A stretch of 56,788 nt of DNA from a virus (Duplodnaviria; Caudoviricetes), in IMG/VR virus record IMGVR_UViG_3300042868_005444, positions 1 through 56,788 of that record. The stretch is one strand, 5' to 3'. Under the pieces are notes generated by a model that was not told the DNA's origin, did no database searches, and was given only the letters and a program-made list of their open reading frames with translations. The position numbers and the translations under genes are program-made. This document shows positions 12,401 to 42,960 of this stretch, one piece after another. Position 1 is the stretch's first letter, and every line of letters starts with the position of its first letter.

Positions 12401-13285
12401 CAGGCCATCGTCGGTCTTGCCGATGCGCTTGATGTCATGCTTCAGGCGGCGATCTGACCAGAAGGAGGTCGGCTGCGTGGTGGTCGTGGTCGATCCAGAC
12501 AGCGCGCCGGTGCCCATGGCGATGTTCGCGAGGAACTGCGCCACTTGGAACGGGTAGGCTTGCTGCTGTTGGAACTGGTTGTAGAGCGCGCTGAGGCCAG
12601 CCTGTTCGGTCTGCTGACCGAGGGTGCCCGCGTTGATCTGCGCTTCCGCACCCTGCAGGCCGAGGCCCTGAGCCATCTGGCCAAGACCAGCCATTTGCTG
12701 ACCACCAGACAGAAGGCGAGCAAGGTTGGCCTGCTCTGCACCAAGGTTCAGGCCCTGCTGTTGCTGAGCCGTCTGCAGCGCTTGTTGGTAATTCTGTGCG
12801 TTCAAACCAGCCAAGGTCGCGCCGGTGGCCATACCCTGCTGTTGGGCGAGGTTCGCCGCCGCAATACCGGCGCGGTCACCACCAAAGGCACCGCTTGAGA
12901 TCGCCGTGCCGAGCGCGCCAGACTGCGCCTGCTCTTGCTCCTGACGCATGCGGGCCATCGTCGCGTTGATGACGTCCTGCTGGTACGGGTTCATGTATTT
13001 GCTGATCTCAAGATCAGCGGGGTTTGCCGCAGCCATGCCGGAGCGCGTAGCGTCCGTGGCTTCACCGATGTACGGCTGGTAGGCTCCTGCAGCGGCGTTG
13101 ACGTTGCCGATGCCCATCTGCTGCTGTTGGTTCAGCTGGGCAACAAACTTTGAGGGATCAGTGGAGTAAATCTGGAACGGCGTCTGGGCGACACTTTGGG
13201 CCTGAGCGTTCACCGCATTATAGCGGTCAAGCACCTCCTGCGGGATTTGGACCTGTTGTGTCGTTGTTGAAGTCTTGCCGCCCAT
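9461..13285 (-). CDS. large internal virion/ejection protein with two peptidase S74-like domains and a lytic transglycosylase (SLT) domain
   Basis: Gln/Gly-rich N-terminus; SDRRLK...GFMADEVE...VDY twice; IITQESGG...GIGQVMPAT...YNAGPG...ETQNYV. Confidence 0.85.
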   Translation of the reverse strand: MGGKTSTTTQQVQIPQEVLDRYNAVNAQAQSVAQTPFQIYSTDPSKFVAQLNQQQQMGIGNVNAAAGAYQPYIGEATDATRSGMAAANPADLEISKYMNPYQQDVINATMARMRQEQEQAQSGALGTAISSGAFGGDRAGIAAANLAQQQGMATGATLAGLNAQNYQQALQTAQQQQGLNLGAEQANLARLLSGGQQMAGLGQMAQGLGLQGAEAQINAGTLGQQTEQAGLSALYNQFQQQQAYPFQVAQFLANIAMGTGALSGSTTTTTQPTSFWSDRRLKHDIKRIGKTDDGLPIYSFKYKGDDSEQTHVGFMADEVEKVKPDAVNTEPSGYKSVDYDRATKAGGGGVAGPYGSSVGSQPGAGGYVPQAYLPVGELMIADSSGLENARMSAAQQLEAAANFGNSMIDLKDKFGKGGEFWELFQKNRESENSRGGVVGYASGGPAYLEGGLKPAENPVQKEGYLSDTVKSQEEAKKNQIMQPGSAPGQPESTMSKIGNAANTALAVANLFALSDRRMKHEIRRIGKTDDGMPIYKFKYKGDDREQTHIGFMADEVERKHPDAVMTGSDGMKRVDYGQADKFYQGGVVRQGYRVGGGPEAEEEIIRRRLMAGDVPRPMNLGDLPDARVTPAAEVSPTPTREPIPAGDLAGLAAAAIGRSDVRPTVQPGLVPAAQPEERPAAIDPSEFYRTKIITQESGGRQFDSNGNPLTSSAGAIGIGQVMPATGPEAAKMAGLPWDEERFRTDADYNAALGEAYFLNMYDRFGSLDLASAAYNAGPGRLRSALDRAGAMGGSYLDYLPEETQNYVASVTGMGSASRGVAGNAGGASAGEEYAGGLGLKPEKPYGERNALGKMFYNDDGKVNKNALLSILSGLGTMASSPSLYLGSSIIQGIGGAANTYAGLEKQAADIRGLDAQALQTTMQTAKESIFPVDGVNMIMTENGLVPFWDFLDNSRLSTGERMVDDMIRRVGMSAQSSGFDLNSPDLSGTISVPTGGEAATPSIPSNVAWGDASQEALARDREMMRSQPGQWFETVKQTSQILPAVNAERSAAISGKPNVNEMAYVVGSAINEGNMGTAGEWYANNIVKPLVTFLPENWTADLGSPETQSALLEKLATLSASDMTPEQQRAASVFQQVSAVYPDLNMPPDAASAITASVMLANQEDIDRANYYSAYLSQQPTGRGSLVNADAAFGQEYSQLHQLEKANLTDLFKMADDPTPVGQTGKTKGDFVKEFLSDVHSGRMSQEEAQMALSALLGTENTSPVLARYFIGGM

Positions 13286-13779
13286 TAGGAGCCCCCTTCA
13301 GCCCCTTCATTGAGGCCAGTTTTTGCACCGTAGAGGAAGTATACACCAGCTGGTGAGCCAAATACACGCTCATAAAGCCGAATTTTTGCTTCCGTCCGAG
13401 AACTTGAAAGAACGCCAATCGCCAAGGGTATACTCAGTCTATCTGCCGTCATCTTCGCGAACTCAGCAAGCTTCCGCGCCCTGCCGCCTTTGGCGGAACG
13501 ATATTCAGGGTCAACGTAGATCGCCTTCTCCTCGAGGATCAGTTCCTTGCTGTACCACATTTCACCCATGCTGAGAAGGACTGCTCCTTCTAACTTGCCA
13601 CCGACGGGCCCAAGGACACCGCAGATGCCTGTTTGGCGGGTCAGCGCACCCCAAACAACCAGTGCAAGCTTCTCTACGTCGGGCGGAACAACCGCGTTCT
13701 CCTGTGTCGCCGCAAGGGCGAGGGCCATCATACCGTTGAAGTCTTCTTCCACACCGGTACGAACCTCGACGTCATCCAT
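13285..13779 (-). CDS. GNAT-fold (acetyltransferase-like) virion morphogenesis protein
   Basis: IYVDPEYRSAKGGRARKL motif-A-like segment and RLYER; position between nozzle and ejection genes. Confidence 0.7.
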   Translation of the reverse strand: MDDVEVRTGVEEDFNGMMALALAATQENAVVPPDVEKLALVVWGALTRQTGICGVLGPVGGKLEGAVLLSMGEMWYSKELILEEKAIYVDPEYRSAKGGRARKLAEFAKMTADRLSIPLAIGVLSSSRTEAKIRLYERVFGSPAGVYFLYGAKTGLNEGAEGGS

Positions 13780-13783
13780 CAGT

Positions 13784-14365
13784 TTAGTCCTTCTTGGGCC
13801 CCGGCAGTGATTGCAGGGTTCTGATGGCCTTTTTTCGCATTTTTTTCACGAAGGCATCAAGGACTTTGTGCCCGTGATCGAGAGAACCGCCGCCGATGTG
13901 CTCGACGTCTTTGGGCGGGATGACGTACTCACCGCCAGCCGCAACGATTGGCACCGCGTCGACCTCGCCACCTGCAGCGCGTTTGGGTGCGGGCTGGCCG
14001 TAAGGCATCTCGCTGCCACCGTAGGGCATGGAGCCTGATCCTTGACCATACGGGCCGGGCACGGAGAAGATCGACTTGGCGACCTTGAAGCCCGCCATCG
14101 AATTGCCCTCACCCATGGCAGAGATGATGTCGGCGGGGATAACGTACGACCCAGACGCGACGTGCATGGGCAGGTGGTCCGTGCGACCGGCCACTGCGGA
14201 GTGGATCGGACCCTCGTGCGTTTTGATCCCACCGCCGCGCTTCATGCCCTCACGAGCCGTGCTCAGGGCAGCCGCAACAGCCTGATCCTGCGGATGGCCA
14301 GAGTGAACCATCTCGGAAATATTTTTGGAAATTGTTTCCTGCGAGCTTCCGGGCTTGAGCGGCAT
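13784..14365 (-). CDS. virion protein with duplicated D-x-x-P...G[SE]YVIP module and two GG motifs
   Basis: [18 protein letters not shown] and [19 protein letters not shown]; start MPLKPG after GAGGA. Confidence 0.7.
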
Positions 14366-14373
14366 GTCGTTCC

Positions 14374-14715
14374 TCACGAATAGACGATGGCGACGGTCTG
14401 CCCGGTGCCGGGCGCGACGACGATGCCGTTGTTGACGGGAATGTTCGCCTCGCCAACCCCAATGGTGGTGGGGATCGTCAAAAGCTTGTCGTTGGTGGCT
14501 GTGGCCGATGTAGCATCGTAAATCGCCCCAGTTCCCGATCCGGCGACGACAACAATCACCCGCGCGATCCGCCCTTGACCAGACTGCACCAGCGTTGCTG
14601 TGGTGATGTTGGTGTAAGACTTCGAACCCTCAACGTCCAGATATGTCTGGCCGAGCTGGTTGAGCGCTTTCACGATGTTCTGCGTCGTTGTGAGGATGTC
14701 GGATAGCGAGGCCAT
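14374..14715 (-). CDS. small structural protein
   Basis: 113 aa, beta-rich, in structural operon. Confidence 0.65.
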
Positions 14716-16991
14716 CAGAATTTCCCATCAGGTTGGAGGCGATACCGGATATTCCCGAGACGCCAGAAGGAGCCGAGATCGTTACTCTCAATCCGGATTG
14801 AAACGAGACGCCCACGAATTCTCGGGGTGATGAAGGTTGTGTTTCGTGTCACCAGATGTTCGGACACCTTGGGCGTCTGTCCGGGGTAGTCAACCACATA
14901 GAACGTGATCTTGACCTGAGCGTTCTGGGTGCCGCCATACAGGCCCCACTTCATGTCTGGCCACATCTGATCGACAAACGTTTTCAGGTCGCCTTCCTGC
15001 AGCGCAAAATACCCTGTCTGGATGTAGGCGTTGATTGCTGCGCCGTCCGCATCTTGCGTAACTTCGTGCTGATACACGACACGGTCCTCGCCTGCCCCAA
15101 TGGGTGGTCCAAGAACCGACTGGTCAATCCACGCGGTACGGGTCAGCTCGCCGAAATCCCACTGACCCAAGAGGGTGTTGAGCTTGACGTACTTGGTGGG
15201 GATGCCCCCAGAGCCGATTGTCGGGTAGTACCAAGTCACCTCACCAAAGCGGGCGTTTGTCGCGCAGACTACGCGGTCGACATTGTCTTCGTCGATGTCT
15301 TGGAAAATCACGTCCCAGATCGGGCAAGGGATTGGGCTGACACCACCGCCGCCCAGTGAGAAGAACTGGCTTTGGCTCATCCAGAAGATTGTTCCGCTGA
15401 GCGTGGCGGCGGCCTTTTTGCCGATCAACCCGCAACCCGTGCCGATCTCGTTGAACGACCAGACCAGCGGCAGACCAATGTACTGCATCGACCACACGCC
15501 AAGATCGGTCCACAGGATACCCTGTTGCGGCCCCTGCAAAGCAGAGATGATGCGGGAACCCTTGGGGATGCGGAATGAGCCAGCCTGATTGGCAACAGTC
15601 CCAACCCAGCTGCTGAAGTTGCCGATGTCGCACCAGCGGACCAACAGGGGGTCTTTGATCGCCGAGAAGGTGCTACCATAGGCAATGATCTGCCTCTGAG
15701 GCATAGCCACGAAGCAACCCTCGTTTACCTTTGGCGCGTTGGGTACGACCACTGCAGACTGGCCGCCGTCGGTCGGGCTCCAATAGTAAATCTCGCCGTT
15801 CTCAGGGTTTGCAATCAGAAGTTCGCCCCAGTTGTCGAGCGTCCAGTCTGTGGCACCGGCGAAGCCGAACCGGGTGATTGACAGGGTGCCCGCGACAGTC
15901 TGGTTCCCGAGGGTGGACGGAACAGTGAAGGATATGGTCGAAGTTGAGCCAACGGTTCTGGCCGTGGTTGTCCACGTCCCGTTGTATCCAGATGGTGTGA
16001 CACCACTAATCGTGATTTGAGTGTCAACAGGGATGTCGTAGCGACCGGAGAACGAGACGGTTGCAACGGTGCCGACGCAAGTAGCTGCGGTTGTGGCAAA
16101 AGTCCTTGTTCCGCTAGACGTCACACCTGTCCCGTAGCCGCCAGCGCCGTAACCGCCGCCGCCGTAACCAACCGACGGAGGAAGCGCCGACTGACCGATA
16201 TAATATGTGATGTGGGGCCGTCCGCCGTTCATAGACACGGTGGCAGCAGAGGTTGCCTCGTTCTCGGCAGCGATAACGAAGACCGAGCTGGATGTAACGC
16301 TTCGTACGATGTAGTTTCCATACAGCGTTATGCCGCCGACCGTTGTCGCAACAAGAACCGGGTAGGTCGAGCCAACCTGAAAGTTGTGGTCCGCAAGGGT
16401 CACGGATACCGATGCAGAGTTGGTAGCCGTTGTGAAGCTTGCTGTTGCGCCCCCGGCGGCGACCGTGCTTGTTGCGTTGACCGGTAGGCCGATCACGTTT
16501 CGAGAGAAAATCGAGTACCTGTCAGACGTCGACCCTTCGCACGAATAGAACCCAAACAGCACAAGACCGCCAATTGAAACGTGGGTCGACAAAAAGATGC
16601 TGTCGAAGCTGGTGATGTTTGAGCCAGTGTCGTCAATCTCCACTTCATTTGAGCCTGAAGTGGTGTTGAAATCCATCGCGGGGTCTGCGTTGTAGGACTG
16701 AGGCGATATGTCTTCAACATCAGCGCCATTGAAAGAGTAAACCCCGTCTTCAGCGCCGATTGCAAGCCAACGCTGATCGTTCGTGTCAGCCCAAGCCCAC
16801 AGTGCCCGCACGATAGCCGTCATGGGTTCGGATATGTACCGATCCCAGCCACCGATCTTTTGGGGCAGCCCAAGACCATTCCTGTCCGGAACGAACCGGA
16901 TCAGGTTGCTTTCGGAGATCGCAGCCTCGTTGAGGGCAGGCGTCCTATTCTGGTCGACGCCGGGAATGAGCTTTAGTGATGCGTGTGGCAT
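14715..16991 (-). CDS. tail tubular protein B / nozzle (P22 gp10-like DNA stabilisation protein)
   Basis: 758 aa with propeller-like Trp/Gly repeats (VRWCD...W...QAGSF, W.F..IGTGCGL), C-terminal RGRLVSIRIES...WRLG. Confidence 0.75.
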   Translation of the reverse strand: MPHASLKLIPGVDQNRTPALNEAAISESNLIRFVPDRNGLGLPQKIGGWDRYISEPMTAIVRALWAWADTNDQRWLAIGAEDGVYSFNGADVEDISPQSYNADPAMDFNTTSGSNEVEIDDTGSNITSFDSIFLSTHVSIGGLVLFGFYSCEGSTSDRYSIFSRNVIGLPVNATSTVAAGGATASFTTATNSASVSVTLADHNFQVGSTYPVLVATTVGGITLYGNYIVRSVTSSSVFVIAAENEATSAATVSMNGGRPHITYYIGQSALPPSVGYGGGGYGAGGYGTGVTSSGTRTFATTAATCVGTVATVSFSGRYDIPVDTQITISGVTPSGYNGTWTTTARTVGSTSTISFTVPSTLGNQTVAGTLSITRFGFAGATDWTLDNWGELLIANPENGEIYYWSPTDGGQSAVVVPNAPKVNEGCFVAMPQRQIIAYGSTFSAIKDPLLVRWCDIGNFSSWVGTVANQAGSFRIPKGSRIISALQGPQQGILWTDLGVWSMQYIGLPLVWSFNEIGTGCGLIGKKAAATLSGTIFWMSQSQFFSLGGGGVSPIPCPIWDVIFQDIDEDNVDRVVCATNARFGEVTWYYPTIGSGGIPTKYVKLNTLLGQWDFGELTRTAWIDQSVLGPPIGAGEDRVVYQHEVTQDADGAAINAYIQTGYFALQEGDLKTFVDQMWPDMKWGLYGGTQNAQVKITFYVVDYPGQTPKVSEHLVTRNTTFITPRIRGRLVSIRIESNDLGSFWRLGNIRYRLQPDGKF

Positions 16992-16994
16992 CTC

Positions 16995-17744
16995 TTACCC
17001 CCGTGTCGGAGACGCGATTGGCGTCGGTGACTGTGACGACCAAGCGGGGCCTTCGTACTTCTTGCGGGCTTCCTCGACACCGGCGCTGCGCAGGAGGGTC
17101 TGGTACTGGCTTTCGTACGATTGCGCCATCTGCGGGTCGTCCGACTGACGGCCAAAGTTCCGCTGGTAAGCGGAGATGTACACCATCGACGCCATGATGA
17201 GCAGGTCGGGGAAGTATTGGCTGATGAACGTCACTGGGTTAGCCGCCGACATCTCATTGGGTCGGTAAGTTGCGACAACTTCAACGTAGTAGGTCTGATC
17301 CGGAACCGGGCCCACGAAGAAGAGGTTCTCGTTGAACGCAGCGTAGTACTGCGGCTGCCCACGAGACGCGGTCGCGTTTGAGCCGTAAACGACGTCCAGA
17401 TATTCTTTCGTCGTGGGCAGGAGCGTGACGCGCGAGGCGTTTGCCCCGTTGGGGTCGGTCTGTCCAGCTGGGGTGATGATGTTGATCTGTTCCGAAACCA
17501 CGATGCTGCCCGAGCCGTTTGGCAGGGTCATTGGGAACGACAGGTTTCGGTTTCCAGCATTGAGCAGGATCGACGGCGACGTGAAGGCCGTCGACGTGCT
17601 CATGAGATCGAGGTCGCGGTAGATGCGCAACTCGGCGTAGTCGATCATCGCCGGGAGGATCGTAACGAAGTTCACGTCGGCAGGATCGACGACCGCCATC
17701 TCGGCGATCTGCGTCACATATGTGCTATAGGTCAGTCCGGTCAC
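16995..17744 (-). CDS. head-tail adaptor / tail tubular protein A-like
   Basis: IDYAELRIYRDL, GQPQYYA, GPVPDQTY, PDLLI pattern; immediately upstream of nozzle gene. Confidence 0.7.
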   Translation of the reverse strand: MTGLTYSTYVTQIAEMAVVDPADVNFVTILPAMIDYAELRIYRDLDLMSTSTAFTSPSILLNAGNRNLSFPMTLPNGSGSIVVSEQINIITPAGQTDPNGANASRVTLLPTTKEYLDVVYGSNATASRGQPQYYAAFNENLFFVGPVPDQTYYVEVVATYRPNEMSAANPVTFISQYFPDLLIMASMVYISAYQRNFGRQSDDPQMAQSYESQYQTLLRSAGVEEARKKYEGPAWSSQSPTPIASPTRG

Positions 17745-27267: not shown

Positions 27268-27960
27268 TCACCTGTAATATCCGCCGACCAGCGGCGAGAT
27301 GTAGACGTTCGACGTCTCGATGTTCTGGTCAGCTGCGATCTTGTAGCTCTCGTCGGCCTGCGCCTTCAGTGCGACAGCGATCTCTGGCTTCCAGATGCGG
27401 GCCAGACGATAGGTGAGGCCGTCAGCGAAGGCTTCAAGCCACAGATACGGGATTTCGACCTGCGTGTTGCCAGCCATGGAGCTGTCTTGGAGCTGGCGAA
27501 CCCGGTAGTACTTGATCTTCTGGACGGACTGACCATCCGGAACCGGCCACACAGTGAACGTCGGGGACAGCGTACGGTCAAACCAGAAGACGGTCGGTGC
27601 GCCCTGCACGGTCTTGTTGGAGTACGAGGCGTATTCCGAACGGCTGATGGGCATCAGGGGGCGGTCGATGGGCGGCGACGTGCCGTCATCGTGCCGGGCG
27701 TAGGCGTCCAGCATGACCACTGTGTTGCTGTCCACCGGATAAGTGTCTTGACCGGCAACAAGCGTGACTTCAATGAGGTCGACAGCCCAAAGGTTCACCC
27801 CTTGGTTAGCCCAGCGGGCGCACATCATGTTGGCGGCCATGCGAGCGGCCTCCATGTGCTCCTGCAGCAGAGCCGTGGGGCGGATGCCCACGTTCATGTA
27901 GGCGTAGATCGTGATCTCGCCGAGGCCGGGGTTGAAGTTATAGGTGCCAGTCGTTGCCAT
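27268..27960 (-). CDS. head-closure/adaptor protein
   Basis: WANQGVNLW, ISRSEY...NK...GAP, VWPVPD pattern; head-tail joining position. Confidence 0.7.
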   Translation of the reverse strand: MATTGTYNFNPGLGEITIYAYMNVGIRPTALLQEHMEAARMAANMMCARWANQGVNLWAVDLIEVTLVAGQDTYPVDSNTVVMLDAYARHDDGTSPPIDRPLMPISRSEYASYSNKTVQGAPTVFWFDRTLSPTFTVWPVPDGQSVQKIKYYRVRQLQDSSMAGNTQVEIPYLWLEAFADGLTYRLARIWKPEIAVALKAQADESYKIAADQNIETSNVYISPLVGGYYR

Positions 27961-34214: not shown

Positions 34215-35468
34215 TTAAGCCTTGGCGTTTTTGCCGTACTTTTCGATCTTCTCGAGACGACCCTCGCCGGAGCCAGCGCCGTACTTCATCTTCGGGTAGA
34301 CCTTGCCGCCATCCTTGCGAGCCATCGGCATCGGCATGGGCGGACGGCCCGGCATTGCGCCACCCGGAGGTGCGACATTGGCGGCACCGGCCAGCGCTGC
34401 GCCGAGACCCGGAGGCATACCGCCGGGGGCGGGCATGGGCATCGGAGGAGCGGCTGCAGCGGCGGGCATCGGCATCGGTGGACGCGGCATCGGCATCGGC
34501 TGAGGAGGCATCATGCCTTCCTTGGCTTCACCGCGCGGAGAGATGATGATGTTGATGTTGGTCTTGCCAACCTTGCCACCGGACTTGCGAGCAGTGCGCT
34601 CCGAAGCCTTGAACGCCTCGGCAGTCGGGGCACCCTTGGAACCCGGCTTGCGCATCTTCTCTTTCGAGCCGTCTTCGATGCGCTCACGCTTGGCGTGGAT
34701 GTTGGCATAGAGGCCGCCACCGTTCTTCTTCGGCGCGTCGTGCTTCTTGTCCTCGGGAGAGGCTTCCCACTCCTTCATCGACATGCCGTGCTTCTTGGCC
34801 AGCATTTTGTCTTCAGCGATGTCCTTCTTGGACCCCTCGACCATGCCACCGCGCTTCTTGGGCTCGCGGCCACCCTCGTCCGGGCCAGCCGAAGAGATCG
34901 CGTTCTGGTCCGAGCCACCCTGCATCGAGCCACCGTTCTTCTTGGCCGTACGACCGCCATCCTTGCGGCGGGTCATGTCGCCCTGACGGCGCTGTTCTTC
35001 GCGCATCAGGTCGTTGCCCTCTTTGATCTGCTCGGGCGTTTGCTTCATCGAGGTGCGCTCTGGCTTCGGCAGGGCCTCATAGGGGTTCAGGCCGGTGGTC
35101 AACTTGCCTTCGCCCTTGGGTTCCAACACACCGCCGCCCATCTTGCCAACACGGCCACCCTTCTTGAAGCCGCCGACGTGCTTCTTGCCTTCGCGCTCGT
35201 CATTTGCGGCCTTCTGATCGGTGTTGGCCAGACCGATGCGGCCACCGTTCATGCGGGGCTTGCGGTCAGCGCGTGTCGCGCAGGCCATGCCTTCGACCTT
35301 GCCGCCGGTCTTAAATGCGCGGCGCGAGATCGGGCGCATACCCGTCTTGGCTTCGCTGTCAAGCGGTTCAGCTGGGGTGAAGGTCGAGCTGTCGACCTTG
35401 GCAGACGAGGAGGACGCAAGGCGTTTTGCCTTGTCCTTCATCGCTGCGCGCAGAGTTTTGGCGTCCAT
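34215..35468 (-). CDS. Lys/Gly/Met-rich low-complexity protein with ~10 xxxGG motifs (putative internal head protein)
   Basis: 417 aa from MDAK (GAGGAG RBS); [70 protein letters not shown]; Pro/Met-rich tail. Confidence 0.8.
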
Positions 35469-35484: not shown

Positions 35485-38196
35485 TTATCCGGCGTCCCGG
35501 TCGTGCCGTGCAGTATAGCGCGAAGTGAGAGACATTGCACGGTCGATGTGCCCCTGACCCCGAACAGGCTTTTTCGTGTCGCACGACTTCAGCCAGTGCT
35601 TGAATTCCTTCATCGACATGCGGACCACGGCGCGTTGCCGCTCGGGCCCTTTGCCGTCGGAAAAGCCGTCACGGTACGCCTTGGTGGCGTCTTCGCGGGT
35701 CCGATACCCCAGCATGACCTTGTGCTCGTCAAAGTCGCCGGTGCGCAGATCGTGTTGGTCAATGATGAAGACGTGGTCGCTCTCGCTGTCCGGGCCGATG
35801 CAGACGTCAACGTGGTCACCATCCGCCCCCTCGGTGCGCTTAATGTAGCCGTAGTCGTACGGGAGCTTGACTGACCACTTGTGCCCATTCGGGTCCACGC
35901 CTGACCGCGTCTGACCCTTCATGCTCTCGAGGGTGATCGGCAGGCCTTGGAAGCTGATGTGCCCCTTGAGGTAGTTGCCCGCCTTCTTCTGAGCCTCGGT
36001 CGGATCGGGCAGCACTGCGCCGCCGGTGTTGAAGCCGTAGCGGCTTTGGCGCTCAAGGCCTCGGCCCACGCTTTCGATGAAGCGTTCGTTGATCGGCTGG
36101 AGCTGTTTCTGCTCCTCGGTCAGCTTGCGATATGTCGCCCGACCCTTGTCATCCTGAGAGTACGGGTGAACGATCTGGCCCTTTTTGGTGGGCTTGCCGA
36201 TGAGGGCCTCGGTTACGTCAGGCATGGCGTACTGGCGCTGAACCAGCGGAACGTCGGCAACGTACTCACCGGCAGATGGGTCGGTGTAGGTCGAGTGCTT
36301 GAACGCCGTCTCCTCGCCACGCAGCTTGTCGGGGTCAAACTGAACGATCCGGTGGCCCAGCATGTTTCCGGGCGTGGTCAGAAGTTCTGGGTCGGTGATT
36401 GCGGCCCGCGTGACACCAACATGCGGGAAGCCACGGTCACGCCAGTAGCTGCTGTCCATGAATTTGATGAGGCCAGCCCGGTGTACGCCGGGGAGGTTGC
36501 GAGCAAAATCGGATGCCTCTTTGGAGTTCAGGATGCCGGGCCAGCTCTCCATCGCCGCAGCGCCTTTGGCGCGATCCGCCGGGTCCATATGAAGGCCGGA
36601 GCGAACCGCCGCGTCGAATTCTGCGGCGTCGTCTTTGTGGATGGCGTCCTTGTCGATCTGGGCCGCGACCGCGTCGAACATGTTGTGCGAGCTGTCAACG
36701 GAACGAGGCCCCATCGGGGCGAGAACACCGTACACGGGGCCCTTTTTGGCCGCCTCCCTGATCTTCTTGTTGAAAGATGTCGTGTGGGCCGCGCTATTTG
36801 CCCATACCGCACCGGGGTTCGGCTCAAGCATGTACTTGGGCCCCGCATGCAGGTCGACGTCCCAGTTAAGCTTCTTGTTATTGATGTGGGTCAGGCGACC
36901 AAGGTTTGACCGGTCACCGCCGACGTTGATAAGAGTACCACCCTTGATCTTCTGGTAGGCCTGCTCCCAAGTCATCGGGTTCCGCTGCTTCAAGTTGACG
37001 CCCGGAATGTCAGAAATCTGCGTCTGAACGTCGGTTGGTGCCATCGACTGTTTGACTTTGTAGTAGCTGCCGGTCCCTGTCTCGCCCGCCGTCTTTGTCT
37101 TCATGGTTTCAGCAATAGCCAAAGCCTTTTTGACCATCGCCGGGTCATCTGAAAACGGCGTGTTGATGCGACCAATGGCTTTCTGGATGTCATCACGGCT
37201 TGCATCCATACCCGGCAGGCCGATAGCGGCAAGCGCGCGGGTCAAAGGGTGGTCTTCAATGCTTCCACCGTCCGCATACCCGATCCGACCACCGTTTTTC
37301 GCGCCCCGCATGGCCCGCATGACGTCGTCGTGGGTGGTTTCCTCGTTTCCGGCCTTGTCCCAAATCGCGTGGTGGGTCAAATGCTGCCGGAAAGGCTCCA
37401 AACCGGGGTCCATTTTGGGATTTAGGGCCGCCTGACGGGCTGCGAGGCGGTCAACAGCCGCATACCCGGCCTTCGCCATGGGCTTTTTGGCCTCAGAGGT
37501 GGGCATTCCGGTCTGCAGGATGACCTGACGGGCGTCAAGGGTCGGCTGATCGCCCCGACCAAGCATGGAAGCGACAAAACCAGCTTTCGCCGTGCCAATC
37601 CCACGCATATCCTTGGAGAAATTGCGCCATTCCTCGGGTGAAGACTGGCCGGTGAGGGCCCGTGCGACCAGATCGGACACCTCTTTGTGGCGCGGGCCGA
37701 GGTTTTGGACGGCCCACGGCAGGGCATCCAGCTCCGCGTTCAGGCCAAACGGCTTCATGACCTGCTGGGCATGCGCCACAGCCTCTTCGTCGACCTTTCC
37801 GCGCTCGGCTTGGTCGAGATAACGCTGCCCCATGGGGGTGTGCAACCACTCACCCATCGCGCCCTCGGGGCGGATCATACCGGTCATGCCGGGCGGAAGA
37901 TCAAGACCGGCGGCGCGGACCTTGTCTGCGGTCTGGGCGCGGCGCTGGATCGACGAGCGAGTGATCGCATAGGCCTTGATGAGGTCGCGCGGGGTCAGGC
38001 CACCCTTGGTTGCCCGGCGCGCGGTCTCGTCCATGAAGGCACCGAAGCGCTCGACGTGGCTCGGGATTTCGGGAAGGCCACCCAGCTTCTCCTGAACGTC
38101 GCGCAGGGGGCTCCAGTTCCAATCCTTCATCTTGGGGTTCTCCGGGTCTTGATACCCGGAGACAAGATCGAGTGCGCGCTTTACGGCATCAGACAT
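35485..38196 (-). CDS. modular (polyvalent-type) protein: HhH-GPD glycosylase-like + unknown + inorganic pyrophosphatase-like domain
   Basis: [17 protein letters not shown]...LDARQV...HHAIWD; [13 protein letters not shown]...[17 protein letters not shown]...DQ...FDEHKVMLG; domains separated by YADGG and FNTGG. Confidence 0.75.
35512..35540 (-). promoter_or_regulatory. putative sigma70-type promoter
   Basis: GTGCAA (35540-35535) - 17 bp - TATACT (35517-35512), about 45 nt upstream of ATG 35468. Confidence 0.45.
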
Positions 38197-38236
38197 GGAT
38201 GGCCCCCTGTACGTTGCCGGGGAGCATATCAGATCA

Positions 38237-40009
38237 TCACCGCTTGGTGAAGCGTCTGGTCAGGGCGAGGGCCGCGTCGACCGAACCACCCCGCTTGAAG
38301 GCCGAAAAACCCTTGTCGAGGATGCTGTTTTTCATGGTTTCGGTCATCGGCAGGTGGAAGCCCTGATAGTCGCCATCATTGCTTTGCAGCGTGATTGGCT
38401 CGCCGGGCTTGGCCGATGGGTCGTGCTGCTTGGCCAAGGCCATCACGCTCTTCGGCACGATGTTGTCGTAGTAGCCCTTCATGCCCTCGCCGCCAACCTT
38501 CAGGTCTTCCCCTGCAAGGTTGTGAGAATATATGCTCGGGTCTTGACCAAACGCCGCATCGCCTCCACGCTTTTCTGAGCTCAGGAGCTTCTGCGCAACC
38601 TCCTTGCCAATCAGGGAACCGAGGTGATTTTCGTCTTTAACTTGCTCGGAAAAGGCCCTGCGCCCATCATTATCCCAAGCGTTCAGCGTACCGAAGGAGC
38701 TGGCATTGGGGTCTCGAATGAGCTGTAGAGCCGAAACCTGCTTTTCCAGTCCGTAACGGTCGGCCTGCGCCTGTCCGGGGGTGAAGACCACGCCGTCATA
38801 GTTGCCCAGTGCGGCCTCGCGCAGGACGTTTTTCAGCGCAAGATCGGTCCAGTGCTGGGTGTTCTGGACGTAAGGGGCGGCGGGTGGGCCAACCGACTTT
38901 GCAGTATCAATGTCTGCCGACTGATCCTCGGGTATGGTGCGGTAGGCATCCCATGCCTCAGAGTAGGATGGATGTCGAGAAAGGACTTCCTTTGTCTTCT
39001 TGTTGAAAACCTCATAGGGGTTTTCGGGGTCGGAGAACCCTTTGTCACGCCCCTCTTGCCCCCAGTCGGACTGCAGCTCCTCTACATGCAACAGGCGTTT
39101 TCCGATACCCGGAGCCGAGTGGTGCTTGCTGAAGGGGAAGTTCATGACCCGCGCAAACGAGGCCGCCTCTTCCGGAGAAACCACGCCGTCTTTGACGCCC
39201 TGATCTGCGGCGTACGATCCGAGGTCTCTGATCCCAACCTTAAAATGATCTGCTAGCTTTTGAGCGATGGGCCGCACAGTTTCGCGGTCTTCACCAACCA
39301 TGCGGTCGGACATGCGGATGTGGGCCAGTACGTTCGGGTGATCGGACCAATGGCTTGAGCGATACGATCCCGTGTCCGGGTTTCTTCGCTTCACCGTGGT
39401 GGTGTTGTAGTCACCACCGTGCCGGTCGTAGAACTCGTCTGCAGCCAACTGCGCCTCGTCCAGCGTCTCATACTGGCCAAATCTGGCGTAATCCGGGTGC
39501 GAGGTGTGGACTTCGTAGTGTTCTGCGGGCTTGCCCGTTGGTCTTTCCAGCCGAAGCAGCCTCTCGCGGTAGTATCTGCCGTCGGGGATCGTGTAGTCCC
39601 CATATTGCGTGTCGGCGGTATCGAGGTAGTCATCGTCGCTTTCATAGCGCGAAGTTTCAACATTGGGTCGGCTTGTACGCCGCTGGCTGATACGATTGTA
39701 TTCAACCTCTTCTTCTGGAGACAACTGATCGCGGCTTATAAGCTCAGACCCGCGCCTCTCGTCGTCACGGGTCGTGTATCGGGGGTTCTCGCCGTACTGG
39801 GTGACGCCAAGGTTTGGAATGGCGTCTTCAAAGTGCTTGGCCAGAGCCTCGCGGGTGATAGGGCCGGTGGGCGGCTTTGCGTTGTCGATCTCGACCTGCT
39901 TGATCCCAAGCTTCTTGGCCGCGCCGATCATCTGTTCGGCGGTGCCTTTTTCCTGCGGCAGGGAGCGAATGATCTGGGCGGCTTTGGAGTAGAGGCCGTG
40001 CTTGTTCAT
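38237..40009 (-). CDS. polyvalent-protein-type protein with EExQSDW domain
   Basis: LYSKA...KGTAEQ, SHW...NVLAHIR..DR, LHVEELQSDWGQ, W..LALK, GMKGYYD; ends FKRGGSV. Confidence 0.7.
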   Translation of the reverse strand: MNKHGLYSKAAQIIRSLPQEKGTAEQMIGAAKKLGIKQVEIDNAKPPTGPITREALAKHFEDAIPNLGVTQYGENPRYTTRDDERRGSELISRDQLSPEEEVEYNRISQRRTSRPNVETSRYESDDDYLDTADTQYGDYTIPDGRYYRERLLRLERPTGKPAEHYEVHTSHPDYARFGQYETLDEAQLAADEFYDRHGGDYNTTTVKRRNPDTGSYRSSHWSDHPNVLAHIRMSDRMVGEDRETVRPIAQKLADHFKVGIRDLGSYAADQGVKDGVVSPEEAASFARVMNFPFSKHHSAPGIGKRLLHVEELQSDWGQEGRDKGFSDPENPYEVFNKKTKEVLSRHPSYSEAWDAYRTIPEDQSADIDTAKSVGPPAAPYVQNTQHWTDLALKNVLREAALGNYDGVVFTPGQAQADRYGLEKQVSALQLIRDPNASSFGTLNAWDNDGRRAFSEQVKDENHLGSLIGKEVAQKLLSSEKRGGDAAFGQDPSIYSHNLAGEDLKVGGEGMKGYYDNIVPKSVMALAKQHDPSAKPGEPITLQSNDGDYQGFHLPMTETMKNSILDKGFSAFKRGGSVDAALALTRRFTKR

Positions 40010-42960
40010 TTGATCGCTCCGCCATTGGCTCGATAGATGTTGGGGTCTTCCGGGTCAAAGCTCGCCGCGTCCTTGTGTTTGATCGCGGTCGGCTTGAAGA
40101 CGACGATCTCGGAGACGCCATTTCGACCCTTGCGGATTACGCCATCATGGCCATTGGCCAAGGCCGAATTTGTAAACTGATCGACCTCATGCGGCTTCAG
40201 GTTGTCCCAAGCGTTCATTTTGTCGGCACCCGTCATGACGCCAAAGTCCTGAAGCTTTCGCATTGTGCCGTGAGCTTTTTCTGGGGAGGATACATCCCAG
40301 ATAAAAGGGTTCTTCAAGGCGGCATGAAGGGGGCCCATGACCGATCCGTCGCCGCGATCCTCCTTATCGGCATAATACTCTGCATCACCCTTACGGGCCG
40401 TCAGATAGTGGCCGCGACCGTAAAAGCCGGGATCGCGTTGACCCAGCTTCTCGTCCTTAAACTCGCTGAACCCTTCGCTGGGCGTACCGTGCCAGAGCTC
40501 CAAAGGCTTGCCCTGCTCGTCCTGCAGGTCTTCGTGGATACCCTCGAACATGGCGGCACCGCCAGCGGCGAACGCGCCACGCGGCAGTCGCGGCAGGTCG
40601 GCTGTGCCAGCGGCGTCGTTGATGGCCTTGACCTCTTCGTCCGGCAGGACACGGTTGACTTTCATGTTGCCGCCAATCAGCCAGTTGCCGGTCATGTTCG
40701 GGTTGGTCTTGTAGCGATAGAACCCGCCCAGCGGGACTTGATCGGTAATGTGAGCCTTCACACCCTTACCACGGCTGTCAGCCACCGACTGCCAGTCCTT
40801 GTCGGCTGCCATCTCGACCTCGGCCCAGACGTGGTTGTCGGGCCGGTAATCGGGTTTCTTCAGGCTCGGGTCGGACTTGCCACCGATGTGGGTCGCCATA
40901 GGCAGATCACCAGCATGCCATCCGGGTCGGTATGCCAGATCGCCGAGCTTGGACTTGACCTTGCCCTGCGACTTGCCCTGCGGACCCTCTTCGGCCTCAA
41001 GCCACTCACCCATCGGGACGGGCTTGTCGGCGTTGACGAACAGCGGGTAGAGATTGCCATCACCCTTGGTGCGGAACAGCTTGTAGGCCTTCACGGTCTT
41101 CTGCGGGACGCTCACCTCGCCGCCCTCTGCCTTCGTAATGTCAGGGTCGGCGGGGTCGAACTTTGTGGCCGACAGGGCGCTCTTCACCTGCTCGGGCTTG
41201 AACGCGACATATTCTTTCGTCCCGTCACCCCTGTCAGCAATAATTCCGTCGAACCCAGAGTTGCGGATGGTGTCGTGAAGCTCGTGATGGCCCCACTGGT
41301 TGACCATCGTGCCGTGAGGTGTGTCGCTCAGGAAGACGTCACGCATGGTGGCCGTGCCGTCGTCCAGCTTCTTCATGACAGCCCGCGCCTGTTCGCGCTC
41401 ATTCTGCGGGAGATTGTACTTGTTGAAGACGTTTTTGATGTAATCGACCCACGCCGGGTGTCTCAGAACGTCATCGGTAAACGGCTGCTTCATGCTAACA
41501 TGCAGCTTCATGACCTGCCCGTACGGCCTGACCTCGGGCTGGTCAGCGCGGATGCCCTGCGCGTAACCGCTCGCCGTCTTCGGGCTGTCGCTCAGGTAGA
41601 TGCCGGGCCCGTAGTTACCATACTGAGATGGCTTGAACGCGCGGAAGTCTTGACCAGCGATGTTGCGGTCAGTGGCCTCTTGGTCCACCTCAGAGGTCCA
41701 CTTTCCGTCGCCCTGATAGTTTTGTTTTTCGACAATCTTGGGTGCGTTGCCGTGATACAGCTCGTCGGGCACGTCCGGGTGGTTGCCCTTCATAAATTCG
41801 ACAGCGCCCCCACGGGCCTTCACGGCGCGCAGGTCGCCCATCTTCTGGTAGCCAGCGGCCCTGACGCCGTCGAGGTACGCGGTTCCCTCTTGGAACCCGT
41901 CCACACCCTCTTTGCCGGTCTGATACCGCAGCATCGGGATGTACTGCTTGCCCTCGTGCTCGATGATCGTAGGATCAGTGCCCATCCGCTCAAAGCTGCG
42001 CAGGGCCATGGTGGTGGGCTTCCACGCCTGCATGTATCGCCCGGTGATACGCATGGGGTGCGCGCTGCCCTGCAGGGTATCGCCGACCTCGTAGCCGTCG
42101 AACACACCGGCGTCGACCGCCTTCTGGTGCGCTTCCATGGCGTGGGTCATCCGGGTGTGAATGTCGTCCATCACGCCGGTGTGGAACGTCTGCAGCTGCT
42201 TCTGTTCGCGCGCCTGACCCAGATCGGCAACCTCACCACCATCCGCATAGCCGTAACGCTGCGATGCCCAGCCCTGCGCCCAGTCGGGGATGCTGTCGCG
42301 GCTGTGAGACGGGCCCCATGCGCGCTCGCCGCCGACGTCGAAGTGCATGTTGTTGTCGTAGAAGCCGAAGCCCCGAAACCCTGCGTTCCATGCTGCGTCT
42401 GCGAGGGCCAGCTTGTCCTCTGGCGACCAGCCGGTGGTGTTCACATCATAGGCGTTGCCGTGGGTGTGCTGGCTGTCCTTGGCTCCGCCGACACGCTCGT
42501 TGTGCTCAGGGTCGCGGTACGCGCTGACGATGCCGAAGTCCTGCCCACCCCAGCCCTTGCGCAGTGCTTCCATCGCGGCGGTGGCCTCGGGCGTTAGGCC
42601 CTCCGCTTTCGCTTCAACGCGATCCGCGTGGGGCTTGGGCTCTTCTCCCTTCTTGGGATACACCAGATCGGCAATGCCGGTGGCGGAGTTGCCGATGCTG
42701 GCGAGGCTGCCGAGGGCGTCAAGGAGGCCCGGCTGGCGCTGGGCTGGCAATGCACCGGCGACCGCGAGGCGACCAACCGGCAGGGCTGCGGCTGGAACAT
42801 AGCCGCCGTTGGCATGCACCTGACGCGGGACGTTGGGAAGATACTTGGACGGTGCGATCTGGCCTTCGGCCCGTTCAACGGCGGTCTTGGCCCGGCGCTT
42901 CTCGAGAATGCCACCCAGTGTCAGCTTGGCGGCCCGGATGGCTTTCTCGTGATCCATCAT
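40006..42960 (-). CDS. modular (polyvalent-type) protein: peptidase M15 + unknown + ART-like + unknown + ART-like
   Basis: SAYRDPEHNERVGGAKDSQH..GNAYD...HFD; LYHG...GPGIYLS...GFDGI...EYVAFKPEQVKS; LWHGT...GRGHYLT...GHDGV...EIVVFKP; six GG motifs at domain borders. Confidence 0.8.
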   Translation of the reverse strand: MMDHEKAIRAAKLTLGGILEKRRAKTAVERAEGQIAPSKYLPNVPRQVHANGGYVPAAALPVGRLAVAGALPAQRQPGLLDALGSLASIGNSATGIADLVYPKKGEEPKPHADRVEAKAEGLTPEATAAMEALRKGWGGQDFGIVSAYRDPEHNERVGGAKDSQHTHGNAYDVNTTGWSPEDKLALADAAWNAGFRGFGFYDNNMHFDVGGERAWGPSHSRDSIPDWAQGWASQRYGYADGGEVADLGQAREQKQLQTFHTGVMDDIHTRMTHAMEAHQKAVDAGVFDGYEVGDTLQGSAHPMRITGRYMQAWKPTTMALRSFERMGTDPTIIEHEGKQYIPMLRYQTGKEGVDGFQEGTAYLDGVRAAGYQKMGDLRAVKARGGAVEFMKGNHPDVPDELYHGNAPKIVEKQNYQGDGKWTSEVDQEATDRNIAGQDFRAFKPSQYGNYGPGIYLSDSPKTASGYAQGIRADQPEVRPYGQVMKLHVSMKQPFTDDVLRHPAWVDYIKNVFNKYNLPQNEREQARAVMKKLDDGTATMRDVFLSDTPHGTMVNQWGHHELHDTIRNSGFDGIIADRGDGTKEYVAFKPEQVKSALSATKFDPADPDITKAEGGEVSVPQKTVKAYKLFRTKGDGNLYPLFVNADKPVPMGEWLEAEEGPQGKSQGKVKSKLGDLAYRPGWHAGDLPMATHIGGKSDPSLKKPDYRPDNHVWAEVEMAADKDWQSVADSRGKGVKAHITDQVPLGGFYRYKTNPNMTGNWLIGGNMKVNRVLPDEEVKAINDAAGTADLPRLPRGAFAAGGAAMFEGIHEDLQDEQGKPLELWHGTPSEGFSEFKDEKLGQRDPGFYGRGHYLTARKGDAEYYADKEDRGDGSVMGPLHAALKNPFIWDVSSPEKAHGTMRKLQDFGVMTGADKMNAWDNLKPHEVDQFTNSALANGHDGVIRKGRNGVSEIVVFKPTAIKHKDAASFDPEDPNIYRANGGAIK

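Follow-up and report, generated by a model that had tools for sequence, protein, structure and literature searches.

A small podophage protein with two tandem copies of the hook element of tape measure proteins, possibly ejected from the virion

The closest described counterparts of the protein considered here are segments of the tape measure proteins (TMPs) of long-tailed phages. For the TMP gp46 of phage JBD30 a "hook", composed of a beta-hairpin plus two helices, has been predicted, and its authors, with pb2* of phage T5 as their analogy, speculate that after a cut at residue 1066 the hook keeps the TMP anchored within the baseplate (PMC11445458). In T5 the 42-43 residues before the R1127 cut of pb2 are reported to lodge in a crevice between hub subunits once the hub has opened, and a metallopeptidase motif with muralytic activity is described just after the cut (PMC10038345). 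The subject of this report is the 193-amino-acid (aa) target protein encoded on the minus strand at 13784..14365 of IMG/VR virus record IMGVR_UViG_3300042868_005444, a sequence of 56,788 bases that is by estimate 93% complete and is called the window. The target protein carries two tandem modules of the TMP hook type, each preceded by a GG motif. We put at about even the chance that it belongs to the virion, is ejected from it, and is docked or retained by its tandem hook in the tail channel or the ejection assembly.

The hook elements of JBD30 gp46 (about residues 1019-1067), Douge gp16 (964-1003 and 1412-1450) and lambda gpH (about 732-776) have in common with the target an [FY]-A-x-G-G motif, a D-x-[IVL]-P ... 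G-E-[FY]-V segment and a helix with G-x-G, and a hairpin plus two helices is predicted for both, by AlphaFold in the present work and in the part of PMC11445458 that concerns JBD30. Unlike the TMP element, that of the target is doubled and makes up most of the protein, which lacks both a TMP_3 domain and a long ruler, and copy 1 has Ser or Ala in place of Glu together with an invariant G-R-T-D of its own. Unlike with TMP genes, no tail-chaperone gene was recognised upstream, no search having been aimed at one. At 193 aa and with no match to a TMP family in Pfam, the target is not a whole TMP, which is defined by a long helical ruler, an N-terminal TMP_3 or TMP_2 domain and a long-tailed phage. 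The copy in lambda gpH is divergent and lies inside the range of NCBIfam TIGR01541 (tape_meas_lam_C, gpH 472-813) and outside that of Pfam PF09718 (Tape_meas_lam_C), which is located upstream of the element (gpH 627-701, KS9 1114-1187). At E<=1, TIGR01541 matched neither the target protein nor the C-termini of the KS9 and MP22 TMPs, and PF09718 did not match the target.

Among podophages, the internal virion proteins of T7, P22 and phiM5 (gp27-31 in the latter) occupy the same genomic place as the target, after the tail tube or nozzle genes and before a large protein bearing an SLT domain, and share its presumed fate of being packaged and then ejected, but have no sequence similarity to it; a match to Phage_T7_Gp13 at E 0.04 in one of 46 family members is not significant. 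In T7 the proteins concerned are gp13-gp16, in P22 gp7/16/20.

The gene is a genuine open reading frame (ORF) of 193 codons plus stop, as judged by ORF calling and translation, and its coordinates in the first-pass annotation are right, because a GAGGAA-type ribosome site lies just 5' of the ATG at 14365 and because homologues share the first residues, MPLK. A word-indexed search at E<=1e-3 returned 3253 homologous proteins, and an exhaustive search 2788 representatives of 50%-identity clusters, 276 of them with E<=1e-30. The family is very widespread, its carriers being short-tailed freshwater phages. Pfam annotation among the homologues was absent except for ART-PolyVal on three of the 120 longer homologues listed. 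The target protein itself had no Pfam match at E<=0.01 and no NCBIfam match at E<=1. Over 46 family members, Pfam at E<=1 gave only DUF6496 (3/46), Phage_T7_Gp13 (1/46) and three other single weak matches, and PHROGs only families of unknown function plus two TMP families (2/46 and 1/46). A ribosomal protein at E 0.31 was the only match of the whole-family profile to PDB sequences, and the ESM Atlas returned unnamed viral clusters only, the nearest named cluster being crAss_CARG1 at 0.85, which Pfam did not confirm.

Conservation was counted in family alignments of 46 and of 72 homologues, both of which contain two strongly conserved blocks separated by a variable Gly/Pro/Tyr-rich linker, with inserts in some homologues reaching about 140 residues. 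Copy 1 (about residues 60-100) has the core D63-x-L-P ... G72-S-Y-V-I-P77 ... G85-x-G87, and copy 2 (about residues 134-175) the core D136-x-V-P ... G145-E-Y-V-I-P150 ... G158-x-G160. Profiles of the two halves, built from the 46-sequence alignment, align over 44 columns with a probability of 97.5% and E 7e-12, so the duplication claimed at first pass is not due to chance. The regular expression written for it there held overall, with a one-residue error of register after YVIP, where copy 1 has A-D and then five residues and copy 2 has P-K-D and then four. The GG motif reported ahead of each copy is likewise a family feature, G44/G45 before copy 1 and G132/G133 before copy 2 being kept in at least 90% of members; counts for the second motif in the larger alignment were 59/72 for A130, 68/72 for G132 and 66/72 for G133.

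The copies differ in their invariant residues. Module 1 has a conserved lead-in, H-x-G-P-I-x-S-x-V, followed by G-R-T-D, invariant in 72/72, and a nearly invariant G-E/Q-G-N; in module 2, A-G-G-E is invariant, and G-H (69/72) and L-D (71/72) nearly so. E146 of copy 2 is present in 72/72 sequences, and the equivalent position 73 of copy 1 is S in 56, A in 15 and T in one, never E. The Glu/Ser asymmetry that had been remarked on is therefore real across the 72 sequences; the active/inactive pseudo-dimer drawn from it has this pattern as its sole footing. Outside the target genome the position is E or D in 8/8 modules, and on these comparisons Glu would simply be the ancestral residue of the single-copy TMP modules.

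AlphaFold2, run with the family alignment, modelled the full protein at a mean pLDDT of 81 and residues 47-193 at 82 (pTM 0.71); the score exceeds 90 in both modules and falls under 50 in the linker. In the prediction each module has a strand of seven residues that turns tightly into one of three, after which come two helices, the first short and the second longer (module 1: hairpin 64-70/74-76, helices 78-84 and 89-100; module 2: hairpin 137-143/147-149, helix 151-157 and a long basic helix 162-186), and residues 1-43 make a separate helical hairpin (helices 9-21 and 26-44, pLDDT 83-95). The GG motif before copy 2 sits in the low-confidence linker of this monomer model, undocked on either module. 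A homotrimer prediction of the core from three copies scored 0.00 against a mark of 0.42, which says nothing either way about self-association. Foldseek found no match in the PDB at E<=0.001. VIA-align matched only the N-terminal helical hairpin of the full model (Z about 6 over 38 residues, a generic match), reaching at best Z 3.4 with the core (residues 47-193), and the BFVD matches were all uncharacterised proteins of uncultured phages, the top rows apparently being family members with the same C-terminal domain. Therefore no known fold is named here and no novelty of fold is claimed. A resemblance to AbrB/MazE-like half-barrels, prompted by the strand-I-P-helix-L-G pattern, was dropped, no such chain being among the VIA-align matches.

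Used alone, the target sequence matches TMPs only weakly, as with Gordonia phage TMPs at E about 0.4. A profile built solely from 13 TMPs aligned by hhalign with module 2, A-x-G-G included, at a probability of 96.5% and E 8.1e-10, and with module 1 at 80.7% and E 1.3e-5, the R-A-A-G-G of the target and the F-A-T-G-G of the profile falling on each other; the link to a GG-plus-GE[FY]V element of siphophage TMPs, stated in the first-pass annotation, was thus borne out. An A-x-G-G lies within about 20 residues upstream of the hairpin in both modules, and of the D-x-[ILV]-P ... G-E-[FY]-V hairpin with its subsequent helix and G-x-G, module 2 has every part, while module 1 has S73 for E. A second profile, A3, made of ten single modules including those of the MP22, KS9 and Sting TMPs, retrieved from the PDB sequences the Douge TMP gp16 (two copies, E 3e-16) and residues 1019-1067 of the JBD30 TMP gp46 (E 3e-13). 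On the evidence of these profiles, the target modules are homologous to the TMP hook element.

In distant podophages with the same nozzle family, the family profile also found proteins that have a single copy at their C-terminal end (gp82 of Pelagibacter phage HTVC027P, E 1e-5; a 759-aa protein of DSL-LC04, E 8e-5; a 294-aa protein of Synechococcus phage MinM2, E 2.5e-12), and a 639-aa protein of MW202545 carries two. These carriers are encoded downstream of the nozzle gene, within three genes or, in HTVC027P, seven. With the C-terminal module of the DSL-LC04 protein as query, tblastn at E<=1e-3 reached 313 phage records; among the 60 rows listed nearly all fell in genes annotated as tape measure, from phages of Gordonia, Arthrobacter, Burkholderia, Pseudomonas, Vibrio and Mycobacterium among others. 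Where the host is Gram-negative, siphophage TMPs have the element about 80-130 residues before their C-terminus; in actinophage TMPs it is internal and sometimes repeated. Most of the 13 aligned TMPs have a second A-x-G-G after it, so that it is usually bracketed by the motif on both sides. An unannotated and very widespread domain family thus ties TMPs to podophage ejection proteins, a connection that we regard as moderately new.

In the exhaustive search the core (about residues 47-193) was the C-terminal part of proteins as long as 1500 aa. The 25 longest homologues comprised four with ART-PolyVal (one below the Pfam cut-off), one each with NUDIX, SLT and DUF7178, and 18 with no Pfam family; in the homologue P0319, ART-PolyVal is joined directly to the hook through ...N-I-Y-R-x-x-G-G. 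As the constant end of ART-PolyVal, NUDIX and SLT proteins, the double module behaves as an attachment end for variable payloads. Polyvalent-protein domains of the ART type are held to be packaged and injected, according to the part of PMC5512222 that deals with them. The target protein carries no effector domain in Pfam and hence is not itself a polyvalent protein, a class taken to have at least two.

The phage encodes an SU10-type portal, two SU10-type adaptor paralogues, a nozzle-type protein, tail fibres, a terminase, a Prim-Pol and polyvalent proteins. It is a podovirus, and it has no TMP, as had been stated at first pass: among the 41 window proteins scanned with Pfam and PHROGs no TMP family was found, the sole TMP-labelled PHROG match being to the SLT part of a 1274-aa protein. 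Gene order was counted in 80 related IMG/VR loci, each count being limited to loci with enough flanking DNA, and is fixed as adaptor, nozzle, (113-aa protein), target, GNAT-like gene and 1274-aa protein. The nozzle gene is upstream of the target in 76/76 loci, the GNAT-like gene directly downstream in 75/75 with gaps of -94 to +19 nt, and the large 1274-aa-type gene downstream in 64/64; the 113-aa gene is present in 50/76. The 1274-aa protein matches families named "DNA ejection protein" and "internal virion protein". In phiM5 the nozzle homologue was detected in the particle proteome according to the annotation of the phiM5 record, and the genes after it are annotated as internal virion proteins detected in particles. 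From the fixed order with the 1274-aa protein and the phiM5 annotation, the target lies in the ejection-protein block, and by analogy with the phiM5 neighbours this arrangement would support a virion role.

From the duplication, the TMP homology, the predicted fold, the gene order and the fusions we infer a protein that would be present in the virion interior and be expelled through the tail at infection, in effect the business end of a TMP without the ruler. The two modules would pack into one pseudo-dimeric knob, joined by the flexible Gly/Pro/Tyr linker, and through this knob the protein would dock, while the particle is being built, either inside the tail channel or onto the assembly of ejection proteins. 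Once the chain has been expelled, the knob may hold it back at the tail exit, a role already proposed for the JBD30 and T5 TMPs. The N-terminal part would then be a variable payload, here the 43-residue helical hairpin and in relatives an ADP-ribosyltransferase, NUDIX, SLT or DUF7178 domain.

Several points weigh against this interpretation. The anchoring role in TMPs is itself the JBD30 authors' proposal and speculative, the element lies in no TMP map (that of JBD30 holds the last 33 residues only and that of Douge residues 1658-1699), and the literature examined contains no experiment on the hook and no proteomic evidence for any family member in particles. The T5 anchor (residues 1085-1127 of pb2*) was rejected as a homologue, hhalign giving its C-terminal region a probability of 0.3% against the module profile, and phiM5 has the same nozzle family without the module. 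Podophage nozzles and siphophage hubs are not known to belong to one protein family, and therefore a common docking partner is not obvious. Finally, polar residues are strictly kept (G-R-T-D and E146 in 72/72, N88 and D170 in 71/72, H166 in 69/72), more than a simple structural hook would need, which hints at a more specific role.

It is unlikely, on present evidence, that the tandem module instead serves solely for loading into the head, as an incorporation signal like MuF that would bind the portal, the scaffold or an inner capsid component and play no part at the tail exit. As with the MuF domain of polyvalent proteins, the module is a constant, virion-associated part fused to variable injected effectors such as ART, and several polyvalent proteins of this phage are encoded beside the portal gene; MuF, however, is N-terminal and head-associated, whereas the module is C-terminal, unrelated to it in sequence and common to tail tape measures, where it belongs to the tail and not to the head. 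The target gene, moreover, is grouped with the nozzle and ejection genes apart from the portal-proximal polyvalent genes, and the only two module copies in the genome are both in it, the 984-aa, 903-aa and 590-aa proteins having none. The N-terminal hairpin, a mobile mini-domain assigned to phrog_2423 (E 2e-13, matched by 36/46 family members) and weakly to DUF6496 (3/46, best E 0.0023), favours head loading inasmuch as it also starts the prohead protease of Acinetobacter phages. In the Obolenskvirus BP10, for example, the 40 residues of phrog_2423 begin the "prohead core protein protease" (locus L096, 2507-3862). The same domain stands as a separate small gene in Pseudomonas phages O4, TC6 and PA11, mostly beside the endolysin gene.

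The GG motif recurs in other proteins of the phage, as the first-pass annotation had proposed. A tag was defined as a bulky or basic residue, a small or polar residue, any residue, G, G, any residue and V/I/L/A/M, a pattern written after the data had been seen and so to be read with caution. The 417-aa protein has seven tags against 0.65 expected (seven reached in 0/300 shuffles), the 984-aa protein six against 0.86 (0/300), the 903-aa protein three against 0.57 (4/300) and the target two against 0.29 (9/300), and seven putative internal proteins together carry 4.2 tags per 1000 aa, compared with 0.85 in the other 33 proteins. Because of this enrichment over shuffled sequences, the wider motif is taken to be real. 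Several tags of the 984-aa protein (e.g. at 241, 384, 800 and 980) are near Pfam domain edges, and in both the 984-aa and the 590-aa protein a tag lies at the C-terminus or shortly before it. The tag may serve as a hinge, as a site of cutting or for docking. The 417-aa protein also shares a cassette of about 45 residues with inserts in the target homologues P0059, P0080, P0092, P0143 and P0225.

These counts, post hoc as they are, bear on a role as GG-motif reader, in which the hairpin would capture x-A-x-G-G-x-[VI] tags by beta-strand addition and string the internal proteins for ordered ejection. In TMPs as in the target, the module always has the tag beside it in cis, and the 984-aa protein ends with the same N-I-Y-R-x-x-G-G junction that P0319 fuses to the hook. 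The undocked position of the motif before module 2 in the monomer model speaks against such a reader, which we hold to be quite improbable; the tag may be a mere hinge or helix cap, and it also occurs in TMPs accompanied by no other tagged proteins to read.

We think it very improbable that the module is active on the envelope, binding peptidoglycan or helping to cut it so as to fix ejected proteins in the cell wall. The element is close to lytic domains in actinophage TMPs; after it, the TMP of Sting has a stretch read by eye as an NlpC/P60-type start, with no family search confirming it, and further on a weak SLT match (E 3.8e-4, below the Pfam cut-off). The homologue P0236 carries SLT, an Asp and a Glu are kept in nearly all modules compared, and the muralytic metallopeptidase motif of T5 pb2 is described just past the cut (PMC10038345). 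With 44 residues, however, the module is small for an enzyme, and neither Pfam nor NCBIfam gave a match to a wall-binding or hydrolase family. The T5 region shows no detectable homology (the hhalign probability of 0.3% given above), and, in an alignment made by eye, the His of the T5 motif falls on the invariant A143 of the target. Like the hook, the pb2* anchor is short and C-proximal; it keeps the expelled TMP in place in the hub once that has opened, and the JBD30 authors call it "a similar hook" in the passage of PMC11445458 that draws the parallel. The further alignment by eye of the T5 A-E-G-G ... G-T-E-V-V-T-P with module 2, including a comparison with a PROSITE zinc-carboxypeptidase pattern, was set aside as a resemblance only.

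Cleavage by the module at neighbouring GG motifs, in itself or in other internal proteins, is the least probable role, with only a very small chance of being right: it could draw on the invariant T, D, E, N, H and D residues, on the T5 pb2 cut after R1127 (...P-R/A-E-G-G..., residues 1125-1131), the only TMP cleavage site mapped, which is two residues before the A-E-G-G and for which the pb2 passages of PMC10038345 name no protease, and on the lack of a recognisable prohead protease among the 41 scanned proteins, but no peptidase family or fold was matched by the target family (Pfam at E<=1, NCBIfam, structural searches), apart from one Asp and one Glu the two copies have different invariant residues, which are also not those of the single-copy TMP modules, no protein of the phage gives evidence of GG cleavage, and the 1274-aa protein already has S74 self-cleaving domains of its own. 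The missing peptidase match leaves room for a new kind of peptidase. No test made here supports either of the roles suggested at first pass, protease or GG-motif reader.

Coordinates of the target gene, its parts and the other genes discussed are collected in Table 1. The domain content of the 1274-aa protein suggests a polyprotein that may cut itself into three parts. An acetyltransferase in an ejection-protein block is unusual, and the GNAT-like protein may be injected too. In the 26/76 loci that do not have the 113-aa gene (L025, L027-L031 and others) about 0.9-1.7 kb of different coding sequence replaces it. The two SU10_adaptor paralogues are at 16995-17744 and 27268-27960, both on the minus strand (E 1e-16 and 8e-12).

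Table 1 Positions in the window of the target gene, its parts and associated genes
Feature	Position	Strand	Basis or remarks
Whole gene, tandem TMP-type hook protein, 193 aa plus stop	13784..14365	-	ORF, translation, homologues
N-terminal helical hairpin, residues 1-43, separable small domain	14237..14365	-	phrog_2423; weakly DUF6496-like
GG motif 1, R-G-G-G, residues 43-46	14228..14239	-	G44, G45 kept in at least 90% of 46 sequences
Module 1, residues 50-100	14066..14218	-	Predicted structure, invariant columns, hhalign against TMP-only profile
Gly/Pro/Tyr-rich linker, residues 101-128, variable length	13982..14065	-	pLDDT below 50
GG motif 2, R-A-A-G-G, residues 129-133	13967..13981	-	Conservation; aligns with TMP F-A-x-G-G
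Module 2, residues 134-186	13808..13966	-	Predicted structure, conservation, hhalign against TMP-only profile
C-terminal tail L-P-G-P-K-K-D, residues 187-193, conserved	13787..13807	-	L187 71/72, P188 66/72, P190 70/72
GNAT-like acetyltransferase, 164 aa, tightly coupled downstream neighbour	13285..13779	-	Acetyltransf_7 E 0.0024 (below Pfam cut-off), phrog_1249 E 4.5e-5
Internal virion/ejection protein, 1274 aa	9461..13285	-	Two Peptidase_S74 chaperone domains (one at 277-327), SLT transglycosylase 690-790
113-aa protein between nozzle gene and target	14374..14715	-	No family match
Nozzle-type virion protein, 758 aa, "phage stabilization protein" in relatives	14715..16991	-	phrog_3287 E 1e-61
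Three large genes beside portal gene	35485-42960	-	984 aa (Peptidase_M15 plus two ART-PolyVal), 590 aa (no family), 903 aa (InPase)
417-aa protein	34215-35468	-	Very basic, 15 GG dipeptides, Pro/Met repeat run near C-terminus

A more general proposal, which we consider distinctly unlikely, is that the A-x-G-G tag and the hook together form a "junction and dock" system of phage injection machinery. If this were true, every protein passing through a tail, be it a TMP segment of a siphophage or a polyvalent or internal protein of a podophage, would have its hinges or cut sites marked by the tag; the hook would recognise the tag or the channel and so set the sequence in which the proteins leave, the podophage ejectosome would be organised by the tandem-hook protein, and TMPs and podophage ejection proteins would share an ancestral functional end.

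The family touches two open questions, one being the way in which the internal proteins of podophages are loaded and expelled and the other the function of the conserved C-proximal region of TMPs, with one small element serving long-tailed and short-tailed phages alike. In relatives of the target the hook is the constant end that bears injected effector domains (ADP-ribosyltransferase, NUDIX, SLT), and the two-module domain of about 150 residues may suit structural and binding work better than a 1000-residue TMP. The family is large, at 2788 cluster representatives, and matched no Pfam or NCBIfam model; with a known function, thousands of phage proteins now called "hypothetical" could be better annotated, as could a segment of many TMPs.

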